From: Escherichia coli
GTDB lineage: Bacteria > Pseudomonadota > Gammaproteobacteria > Enterobacterales > Enterobacteriaceae
NCBI RefSeq assembly: GCF_024502345.1
Contig: NZ_JALDNN010000001.1
Length of the DNA: 64,000 nt
Strand: one strand, 5' to 3'
The stretch's first letter is position 1. Every line of letters begins with the position of its first letter. The translations under genes were made by a program, and so were the position numbers. A model generated the notes under the pieces. The model worked only from the letters and a program-made list of their open reading frames with translations. It was not told the DNA's origin and did no database searches. Of this stretch, positions 18,110 through 19,240 are shown piece after piece.

Positions 18110-18205
18110 TTTGTAGGTCTGATAAGACGCGCCAGCGTCGCATCAGACATCAGCACGGTGCCTGTGCCGGATGCGGCGTGGACGCCTTATCCGGCCTACA
18201 TAGTG
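18110..18205. repeat. REP/BIME palindromic units
   Basis: gcctgatgcgacgctggcgcgtcttatcag and gccggatgcggcgtggacgccttatccggcctaca are canonical REP sequences. Confidence 0.75.
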
Positions 18206-18223
18206 CATAAATTCTTATAATGA

Positions 18224-18263
18224 AGACGGACAACTCACTAAGTTATCCGTCTTTTTTATTTCA
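18224..18263 (+). terminator. intrinsic terminator after artPIQM
   Basis: hairpin gacggacaactcactaagttatccgtc followed by TTTTTTATTT. Confidence 0.55.
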
Positions 18264-18303
18264 TTTAAATTATTTAATCATATTTATTGCATATAAATTC
18301 ACT
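18260..18303 (+). promoter_or_regulatory. putative ArgR operator (ARG-box-like) in artJ promoter
   Basis: ATTTATTGCATATAAATTCA resembles the ARG-box palindrome. Confidence 0.35.
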
Positions 18304-18372
18304 TGATGGCATTGTTATCCCATGCCGCAGACACGGCCAAAAATCATAAGATTGACAGACGGGAGTTCCATC

Positions 18373-19104
18373 ATGAAAAAGTTAGTTCTTGCCGCTTTAC
18401 TTGCTTCCTTTACTTTCGGTGCTTCTGCCGCAGAGAAAATCAATTTTGGCGTTTCAGCCACCTATCCACCCTTTGAATCTATAGGTGCTAATAATGAGAT
18501 TGTCGGCTTTGATATCGATCTGGCAAAAGCCTTGTGCAAACAAATGCAGGCAGAATGTACTTTTACTAATCACGCGTTCGACAGCCTGATCCCGTCACTG
18601 AAATTCAGAAAATATGACGCCGTAATCTCCGGTATGGATATCACCCCGGAGCGTAGCAAACAGGTATCGTTTACCACGCCCTACTATGAAAACTCAGCCG
18701 TCGTGATTGCCAAAAAAGATACCTACAAAACGTTTGCCGATCTGAAAGGCAAACGTATTGGGATGGAAAACGGCACCACGCACCAGAAATATATTCAGGA
18801 TCAGCACCCGGAAGTGAAAACGGTCTCCTATGACAGTTATCAAAATGCCTTTATCGATCTGAAAAATGGCCGTATTGATGGCGTATTTGGTGACACTGCG
18901 GTGGTTAATGAATGGCTGAAAACCAATCCTCAACTGGGCGCTGCTACTGAAAAAGTGACCGATCCGCAATACTTTGGCACCGGTCTGGGTATCGCTGTAC
19001 GTCCGGATAACAAAGCTCTGCTGGAAAAACTGAATAACGCGCTGGCAGCAATTAAAGCTGACGGCACGTATCAGAAAATCAATGACCAGTGGTTTCCGCA
19101 GTAA
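18373..19104 (+). CDS. artJ: arginine-binding periplasmic protein 2
   Basis: ORF track 18322..19104; signal peptide MKKLVLAALLASFTFGASA from the ATG at 18373 (243 aa). Confidence 0.93.
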   Translation: MKKLVLAALLASFTFGASAAEKINFGVSATYPPFESIGANNEIVGFDIDLAKALCKQMQAECTFTNHAFDSLIPSLKFRKYDAVISGMDITPERSKQVSFTTPYYENSAVVIAKKDTYKTFADLKGKRIGMENGTTHQKYIQDQHPEVKTVSYDSYQNAFIDLKNGRIDGVFGDTAVVNEWLKTNPQLGAATEKVTDPQYFGTGLGIAVRPDNKALLEKLNNALAAIKADGTYQKINDQWFPQ

Positions 19105-19126
19105 TTGAGACTGATGACAAAAGTAA

Positions 19127-19240
19127 GATTGCCTGATGCGCTGCGCTTATCCGGCCCACATCAACTCTGCAATGTATTGATTTAGCATGATTTTGTAGGC
19201 CGGATAAGGCGTTCACGCCGCATCCGGCATGAACAAAGCG
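19127..19240. repeat. REP/BIME palindromic units
   Basis: gcctgatgcgctgcgcttatccggcc and ggccggataaggcgttcacgccgcatccggca are canonical REP sequences. Confidence 0.75.

Follow-up and report, generated by a model that had tools for sequence, protein, structure and literature searches.

Introduction

The REP/BIME repeat family has been described since 1984, and its BIME-1 elements are also called RIP/RIB elements. The unit types y, z1 and z2, the composite classes BIME-1 and BIME-2, and the S and L names of their linkers are used here as defined by Ton-Hoang et al. (PMC3333891). BIME-2 elements, of which REP325 is an example, consist of inverted z2 and y units across a short linker and typically form tandem arrays (PMC3333891). 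The HU-binding RNA naRNA4 represents a single y+z2 unit from within REP325 (PMC4550694). In BIME-1 elements, one z1 and one y unit occur as a single copy, and the long, conserved L linker between them often carries an IHF site (PMC3333891). REPIN/RAYT systems are inverted REP doublets with a GTAG foot that are mobilised by a REP-associated tyrosine transposase; in vitro, TnpA-REP both binds E. coli BIMEs and cuts them, and variation in BIME content among strains is established (PMC3333891). REP-containing transcripts have also been discussed (PMC10100675, PMC6061677).

The REP/BIME elements of the E. coli art locus are already known and ordinary. REP83a-b, an EcoCyc-style name, is listed for K-12 artJ (PMC10100675), and the BIME upstream of artJ was flagged by Naville & Gautheret 2010 (PMC2965389). 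The art promoters have been described as well: PartJ and PartP are separate, ArgR represses both of them, and Lrp also represses PartP (PMC6640053).

The elements analysed here compare closely with these systems. As in BIME-2, the artM-artJ and moeB-fsa elements combine inverted z2 and y units with a short linker (17 and 13 nt, respectively), but artM-artJ holds a single unit instead of an array. As in BIME-1, a single copy is present at artJ-rlmC and at ybiU-ybiT, with tail-to-tail z1 and y units, a 35-nt linker and shared flanking motifs. Inverted doublets with a GTAG foot are common to the art locus and REPIN/RAYT systems, as are presence/absence polymorphism and independent insertions at one permissive site in other genera, whereas the art-locus copies have no transposase gene nearby and are only putatively mobile. 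REP83a-b belongs to the same gene, artJ, and likewise has two units (a-b); the name may cover either of the two spacers around it.

Based on the comparisons presented below, we consider it probable, at roughly 85%, that ordinary REP/BIME members occupy the gaps between stop codon and terminator on either side of artJ, and that artJ is separated from artPIQM by the terminator at 18225-18257 together with an ArgR-controlled promoter, not by the REPs.

REP units in the window

We analysed one 64-kb stretch of E. coli DNA, referred to as the window. The 2.5 kb around artJ matched 5,425 of 5,426 complete E. coli genomes, and the best match, at 99.6% identity, was the O18ac:H14 strain 873.10. According to the RefSeq annotation of near-identical genomes, positions 17400-19900 hold artQ, artM and artJ on the + strand and rlmC on the - strand. 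The K-12 RefSeq record has no repeat features annotated in the art region. The genes that frame the four REP sites are as follows.

18081-18083, + strand: artM stop codon (gene end at 18083)
18373..19104, + strand: artJ coding sequence, 243 codons plus stop (open reading frame list and RefSeq annotation of matching genomes)
19279-19281, - strand: rlmC stop codon
54572-55321, + strand: moeB, stop codon at 55319-55321
55500-56162, - strand: fsa, convergent with moeB
60743-62008, + strand: ybiU
62249-63841, - strand: ybiT, convergent with ybiU

The first-pass annotation of this DNA had placed canonical REP palindromes in the artM-artJ spacer (18110..18205) and the artJ-rlmC spacer (19127..19240), with similar clusters after moeB (55330..55415) and ybiU (62085..62200), and had proposed a REP consensus search as the check. 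Our model of a REP unit consisted of the head GCCKGATGCG, a gap of 4-18 nt and the tail CTTATCMGGCCTAC, with at most two substitutions in each half. The window contains exactly eight matches to this model, and no match occurred in 100 first-order Markov shuffles. All eight lie at the four named sites, inside the given intervals, where they form four inverted pairs, so the claim was confirmed at every site.

The units are 29-37 nt long, and all of them are extragenic, in intergenic spacers at gene 3' ends. A pattern with fixed spacing found no matches in the window because unit length is not the same in y, z1 and z2. The 14-nt tail alone matched nine places in the 64-kb window against 0.54 expected; the ninth match, at 59092, has two mismatches and lies within the ybiW coding sequence, and we regarded it as a chance match. 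GTAG feet are found at 18113-18116 and 19195-19198, with CTAC at 18196-18199, and variant feet occur at 19156-19159 (CCAC) and 55331-55334 (CCAG for GTAG). Three of the four units at the art locus fold with internal loops at about -20 to -21 kcal/mol (z -3.5 to -5.3).

The artM-artJ element

The pair between artM and artJ, and its counterpart between moeB and fsa, have these parts.

18113..18148, - strand: z2-type REP, left half of the artM-artJ unit, 36 nt (REP model; hairpin -19.8 kcal/mol, z -5.3), starting 29 nt past the artM stop
18149..18165, no strand: S-type linker of 17 nt between the REP heads, partly alignable with the moeB-fsa linker
18166..18199, + strand: y-type REP, 34 nt (REP model; -21.6 kcal/mol, z -3.5)
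55331..55414, no strand: moeB-fsa BIME-2-type unit, with z2 at 55331-55367 (- strand), a 13-nt linker and y at 55381-55414 (+ strand), starting 9 nt past the moeB stop

The z2 and y units of the artM-artJ pair are inverted and arranged head to head, and alignment with the moeB-fsa unit revealed the same architecture. By these features, the artM-artJ pair is one BIME-2-type unit, composed of z2, an S linker and y. No BIME-2 tandem array was present at this site: in a sample of 60 rows, E. coli strains carried one or two REPs and never more, and three REPs were seen only in Escherichia sp. MOD1-EC7003. We therefore classed the element as a BIME-2-type single unit, as it lacks the tandem copies of the full class.

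Both BIME-2-type sites resemble naRNA4 in Rfam (RF02564, gathering score 59.5). The artM-artJ pair scored 78.5 bits on the - strand and the moeB-fsa unit scored 79.6 bits, also on the - strand, which is the sense strand of fsa. These sites reach the threshold because naRNA4 is itself one y+z2 unit. The + strand of the artM-artJ pair, on which the art genes are transcribed, scored 47 bits, under the gathering score. The art transcripts carry the complement of the naRNA4 orientation, and the matches at these sites mark at most candidate HU-binding RNAs.

The artJ-rlmC element

The element downstream of artJ is longer, and its parts can be traced beyond the REPs themselves.

19105..19130, + strand: BIME-1 left flanking motif (..CTGATGACAAAAGTAAGAT), shared with the ybiU-ybiT copy and the K-12 allele
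19131..19159, + strand: z1-type REP, 29 nt, foot CCAC not CTAC (REP model), starting 26 nt past the artJ stop
19160..19194, no strand: L-type linker of 35 nt, carrying an IHF consensus
19195..19228, - strand: y-type REP, 34 nt (REP model; -20.9 kcal/mol, z -4.6)
19229..19259, + strand: BIME-1 right flanking motif (..AAAGCGCACCTGATCAGCAATCTGA), shared with the ybiU-ybiT copy
62091..62188, no strand: ybiU-ybiT BIME-1-type unit, with y at 62091-62124 (+ strand), a 35-nt linker and z1 at 62160-62188 (- strand)

Here, the z1 and y units are arranged tail to tail. The element is homologous to the one between ybiU and ybiT, and the homology continues past the REPs, into CTGATGACAAA... at one flank and ...AAAGCGCAC..TCAGCAATCTGA at the opposite flank. 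With these flanks, the mosaic extends over approximately 19105-19259, somewhat wider than the interval 19127..19240 assigned to it earlier. Taken together, its architecture and homology identify the artJ-rlmC element as one BIME-1, with z1, an L linker containing an IHF consensus, y and flanking motifs. An open reading frame of 62 aa at 19079-19267 on the - strand overlaps the element; it consists of nearly nothing but repeat sequence and was not taken as a gene. At ybiU-ybiT, a G+C hairpin lies 5 nt from the corresponding BIME-1 flank.

A putative IHF site in the linker, AATCAATACATTG (19170-19182, - strand), agrees with the IHF consensus at every position; this match is the sole one in the four REP-bearing spacers and one of seven in the window, with both strands counted. 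The linkers at ybiU-ybiT and at K-12 artJ each miss the consensus by one base.

The z1 unit at 19131-19159 has a CCAC foot and a weak hairpin in this strain. On its own it folds at -8.5 kcal/mol, no better than shuffled sequences (z -1.1); folding the entire 3' UTR pairs its tail with that of the y unit. The variant foot and the weak fold speak for chance inverted repeats or miscalled terminators from outside the REP family. However, this z1 unit aligns with the z1 of the ybiU-ybiT copy, and the y copies flanking artJ (18165-18200 and 19194-19229) show 97% complementarity across 36 nt. The Rfam scores exceed the gathering score, the shuffles contained no model matches, and a query with the artJ-rlmC element found many matches in every E. 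coli genome, with a median of at least 40 matching places per genome. A chance origin for these palindromes is thus hardly credible, and we treat all of them as REP family members.

Terminators and the artJ promoter

At both art spacers, the layout is the same: a stop codon, 26-29 nt, the REP pair and then a terminator. The signals in question, as read from sequence and folding, are listed here.

18225..18257, + strand: artPIQM intrinsic terminator, a GACGGACAAC...GTTATCCGTC hairpin followed by T6 (inverted repeat; -16.5 kcal/mol, z -5.4)
18286..18303, + strand: ARG box (ArgR operator) in the artJ promoter region, one mismatch to the consensus and the best match in the whole window
19260..19280, + strand: artJ intrinsic terminator, AGCCGCACCTGCGGC followed by T6 (terminator scan; -13.5 kcal/mol, z -3.6)

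The position of an intrinsic terminator next to each REP pair agrees with the first description of the locus. The T-run of the artJ terminator overlaps the rlmC stop codon on the opposite strand. A consensus terminator scan found the artJ terminator and missed the artPIQM one because its stem has a C.A mismatch in this strain; folding and comparison recovered that hairpin. A consensus promoter scan of the window did not find PartJ, and the art genes go unmentioned in one published Term-seq study.

Comparison across enterobacterial species

A DNA-pattern scan for the 3' end of artJ returned 89 loci, and we analysed the 63 in which both artM and artJ were in view (62 enterobacterial loci and the window). 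A relaxed match to the ARG-box block, allowing up to three substitutions, served as the alignment anchor and was present in all 63. Just upstream of this block, 58 of the 63 loci have a G+C hairpin with a T-run. The stems of this artM-artJ terminator vary by genus (examples are GACGGACAA/TTGTCCGTC, GGCGGGTAA/TTATCCGC and GGCGGGG/CCCCGCC), and such differing stems are what a conserved terminator structure predicts.

The REPs are far less widespread, being absent from most related genera at the art spacers. In 44 of the 58 loci, just 0-56 nt separate the artM stop from the terminator, too little for a REP pair. The other 14 loci have 78-146 nt before the terminator: the window, other Escherichia, Salmonella, several Citrobacter including C. 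koseri, and Superficieibacter. In Citrobacter amalonaticus, C. sedlakii, Enterobacter and Kosakonia, a terminator-like hairpin is all that the 33-43-nt spacer downstream of artJ contains. Except in C. sedlakii, these short spacers hold an AGCCGC-loop-GCGGC-T-run hairpin, as in E. coli. A Citrobacter MAG, Phytobacter and Enterobacter ENT03 carry independently inserted REPs at the same artJ-rlmC spot, and these are unlike the E. coli BIME-1. In the REP-containing loci whose sequence was read, the REPs always lie upstream of the conserved hairpin where that hairpin is kept. Given this conservation across species, the terminators and promoter block are ancestral, and the REPs are later arrivals.

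Variation among E. coli strains

Strain variation had been expected at the artJ sites, and both spacers are indeed polymorphic in REP content among E. coli. The window, K-12, O157:H7 and others have an artM-artJ spacer of 289-291 nt with both z2 and y, while JJ1886, 200177, B20105 and SCU-176 have one of 225 nt in which z2 is absent and y remains. The E. coli alleles compared here keep the y unit at 18166..18199. The spacer between artJ and rlmC measures 174 nt in the window and 198 nt in K-12. In JJ1886, 200177, B20105 and SCU-176 it is 28 nt and REP-free, with the terminator only, and in O157:H7 a sulfatase gene lies between artJ and rlmC. K-12 aligns with the window across both spacers, with several point differences, one of which is in the stem of the artPIQM terminator; the corresponding K-12 intervals are 899,646-899,843 and 900,576-900,865.

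Allele frequencies were taken from 60 rows evenly spaced down a ranking of approximately 5,400 genomes and describe a sample instead of a full census. For artJ-rlmC, 20 rows were empty, 18 were of the K-12 type, 15 were of the window type and 6 were split by other genes; an independent count found the window-type allele in 1,501 of 5,425 genomes. For artM-artJ, there were 38 rows with two REPs and 21 with one. In all alleles compared, the terminator hairpins, the T-runs and the ARG-box/promoter block were intact. Therefore, the REPs are dispensable for transcription-unit organization at this locus.

This result bears on the proposal, made in the first-pass annotation, that the REP clusters insulate artJ as its own transcription unit. 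That artJ is a separate unit holds, since its ArgR-controlled promoter is distinct from PartP (PMC6640053); the REPs as the cause do not, since the terminators occur without them. The proposal can be stated more strongly, with the REP/BIME clusters themselves acting as transcription barriers, either as terminators or as Rho-dependent attenuators, that define the artJ unit. Work cited in two papers, including that of Espeli et al. (2001) on attenuation, reportedly shows that BIMEs can be bidirectional terminators and attenuate transcription (PMC2965389, PMC6061677), the BIME before artJ belongs to a candidate attenuator cluster (PMC2965389), and the REP hairpins match the terminators in stability. 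However, the REPs lack a T-run and lie upstream of a canonical terminator that is kept in 58 of the 63 species loci, most of which leave no room for REPs. Moreover, about a third of the sampled E. coli have no downstream BIME and a single upstream REP together with the same terminators and promoter block. We consider a barrier role quite unlikely on this evidence. Because the REPs sit upstream of the terminator and inside the 3' UTR, any termination activity of their own would be redundant.

The terminator and the ArgR-controlled promoter thus remain our preferred explanation for the separation of artJ. The REPs may still make a partial contribution by lowering read-through from artM to artJ, especially in this strain with its mismatched terminator stem. 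More generally, a REP cluster beside a terminator should not be read as a boundary-forming element. Beyond correct annotation, the finding matters little.

Possible roles of the elements

By analogy with described REP elements, the BIMEs would be co-transcribed as part of the artPIQM and artJ 3' UTRs. Once transcribed, the REPs would be expected to fold into stable hairpins, slow 3'-to-5' exonucleases and modestly stabilize the upstream message. At the DNA level, gyrase could act on the y/z2 pair and IHF could bind the L linker; BIME-1 linkers are described as binding IHF (PMC3333891). The REPs probably spread via a REP-associated transposase (TnpA-REP/RAYT), and may persist because these sites tolerate insertions.

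According to a summary of Liang et al. (2015), REPs no more than 15 nt from a stop codon lower translation. Given the distances of 29 nt from artM and 26 nt from artJ, this effect should not apply to either gene; by the same analogy, it could apply to moeB, which has a REP 9 nt past its stop.

The main role of the elements could also lie at the DNA level, with gyrase acting at y/z2 and IHF at the L linker, so that they serve as topological buffers between an operon and the next promoter or between convergent genes. REPs are described as being bound by gyrase, IHF and Pol I and as acting as topological insulators (PMC3333891), and BIME-2 elements are enriched in gyrase cleavage sites, which fall mostly in y units (PMC6379681). 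The window adds the perfect IHF consensus at 19170-19182 and the finding that three of the four REP sites (artJ-rlmC, moeB-fsa and ybiU-ybiT) lie between convergent genes. Weighing against a DNA-level role, strong gyrase cleavage is found only in a subset of BIME-2, mainly multi-copy (PMC6379681), whereas artM-artJ is a single unit. The IHF consensus of the K-12 allele is imperfect, and the frequent REP-free alleles speak against any required role. On balance, we find it improbable that this is the main role, though the case for it has some substance, and we retain the reading of these elements as ordinary family members in permissive gaps.

Alleles of the artJ-rlmC spacer

The K-12 allele has a feature that the window lacks: its artJ stop is followed directly by 24 nt that repeat the terminator hairpin in T-less form (GATTCAGAAAGCCGCAACCGCGGC). 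The BIME-1 of K-12 is consequently flanked by two hairpin copies, and the empty allele has one hairpin. This double hairpin could be an insertion footprint, or it could have arisen by recombination between alleles. We doubt, while thinking it worth recording, that the three alleles document the insertion of a BIME-1 beside or within the terminator hairpin, with duplication of the hairpin. If that reading were general, BIME-1 elements would land preferentially at terminator hairpins, and if it is true, the allele series would be a natural experiment on the effects of REPs on artJ and rlmC expression. Separately, hairpin duplication is not something that IS200/IS605-like (RAYT) chemistry predicts.

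Irrespective of how they arose, the alleles at artJ-rlmC (zero or two REPs) and artM-artJ (one or two REPs) sort along recognizable strain groups, and the series could offer a modest natural system in which to test how REPs affect mRNA stability.

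Hairpins flanking BIME-1

In K-12, the artJ-rlmC spacer carries 24 additional nucleotides, GATTCAGAAAGCCGCAACCGCGGC, directly 3' of the artJ stop codon (2821-2844 of the K-12 locus), a site equivalent to the position just past 19104 in the window. This segment is a diverged copy of the artJ terminator hairpin that lacks the T-run, and thus the K-12 BIME-1 has a hairpin copy on each side. The window has no such copy after the artJ stop codon, and strains without REP sequences at artJ-rlmC have one hairpin only. A hairpin was also found beside the other BIME-1 of the window, at ybiU-ybiT:

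62215-62239, G+C-rich hairpin GTCACCCCGAcagtaTCGGGGTGAC, with a T-run on neither strand, between the ybiT stop codon and the BIME-1 flank

Its relative position is identical to that of the additional hairpin in the K-12 artJ allele.

Variation at the art locus

The artPIQM terminator stem, a perfect 10 bp in K-12 and most other Escherichia, contains a C.A mismatch in this strain at 18244 (gttAtccgtc). The hairpin alone was computed at -10.7 kcal/mol in the window, versus -15 to -17 kcal/mol at three other Escherichia loci. Upstream, the artP control region includes two matches, with 2 and 3 mismatches, respectively:

15142-15159, ARG-box-like match, 2 mismatches
15210-15227, ARG-box-like match, 3 mismatches

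As sequence matches, these are consistent with the published ArgR control of PartP.

Gene order 3' of artJ also varies. At four loci (2567-3381 of L003, from O157:H7; L059; L078; and L091), which represent O157:H7, E. whittamii, and two further Escherichia species, a different hairpin comes after artJ, and the neighboring gene is not rlmC but a convergent one of sulfatase type. The position of rlmC was determined for O157:H7 and L059; in both, a block of inserted genes lies between it and artJ. The artM-artJ spacer of L091 (Escherichia sp. MOD1-EC7003) is 423 nt long. Three REP units lie in it, along with a duplicated piece of the artM 3' end, an arrangement that suggests a tandem duplication that took in the BIME.

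REP distance and other genes in the window

Only 9 nt separate the moeB stop codon from the start of the z2 REP (55319-55367). Reduced translation has been reported for genes whose stop codon is followed by a REP within 15 nt (Liang et al. 2015); the moeB REP is within this range, and those of the art locus lie at 26 and 29 nt. Two further genes were recorded:

30870-30948, plus strand, RybB small RNA (Rfam RF00110, 105 bits)
57198-59630, plus strand, ybiW, intact ORF of 810 codons

The annotation of the closest genome, strain 873.10, lists ybiW as a pseudogene interrupted by an internal stop.
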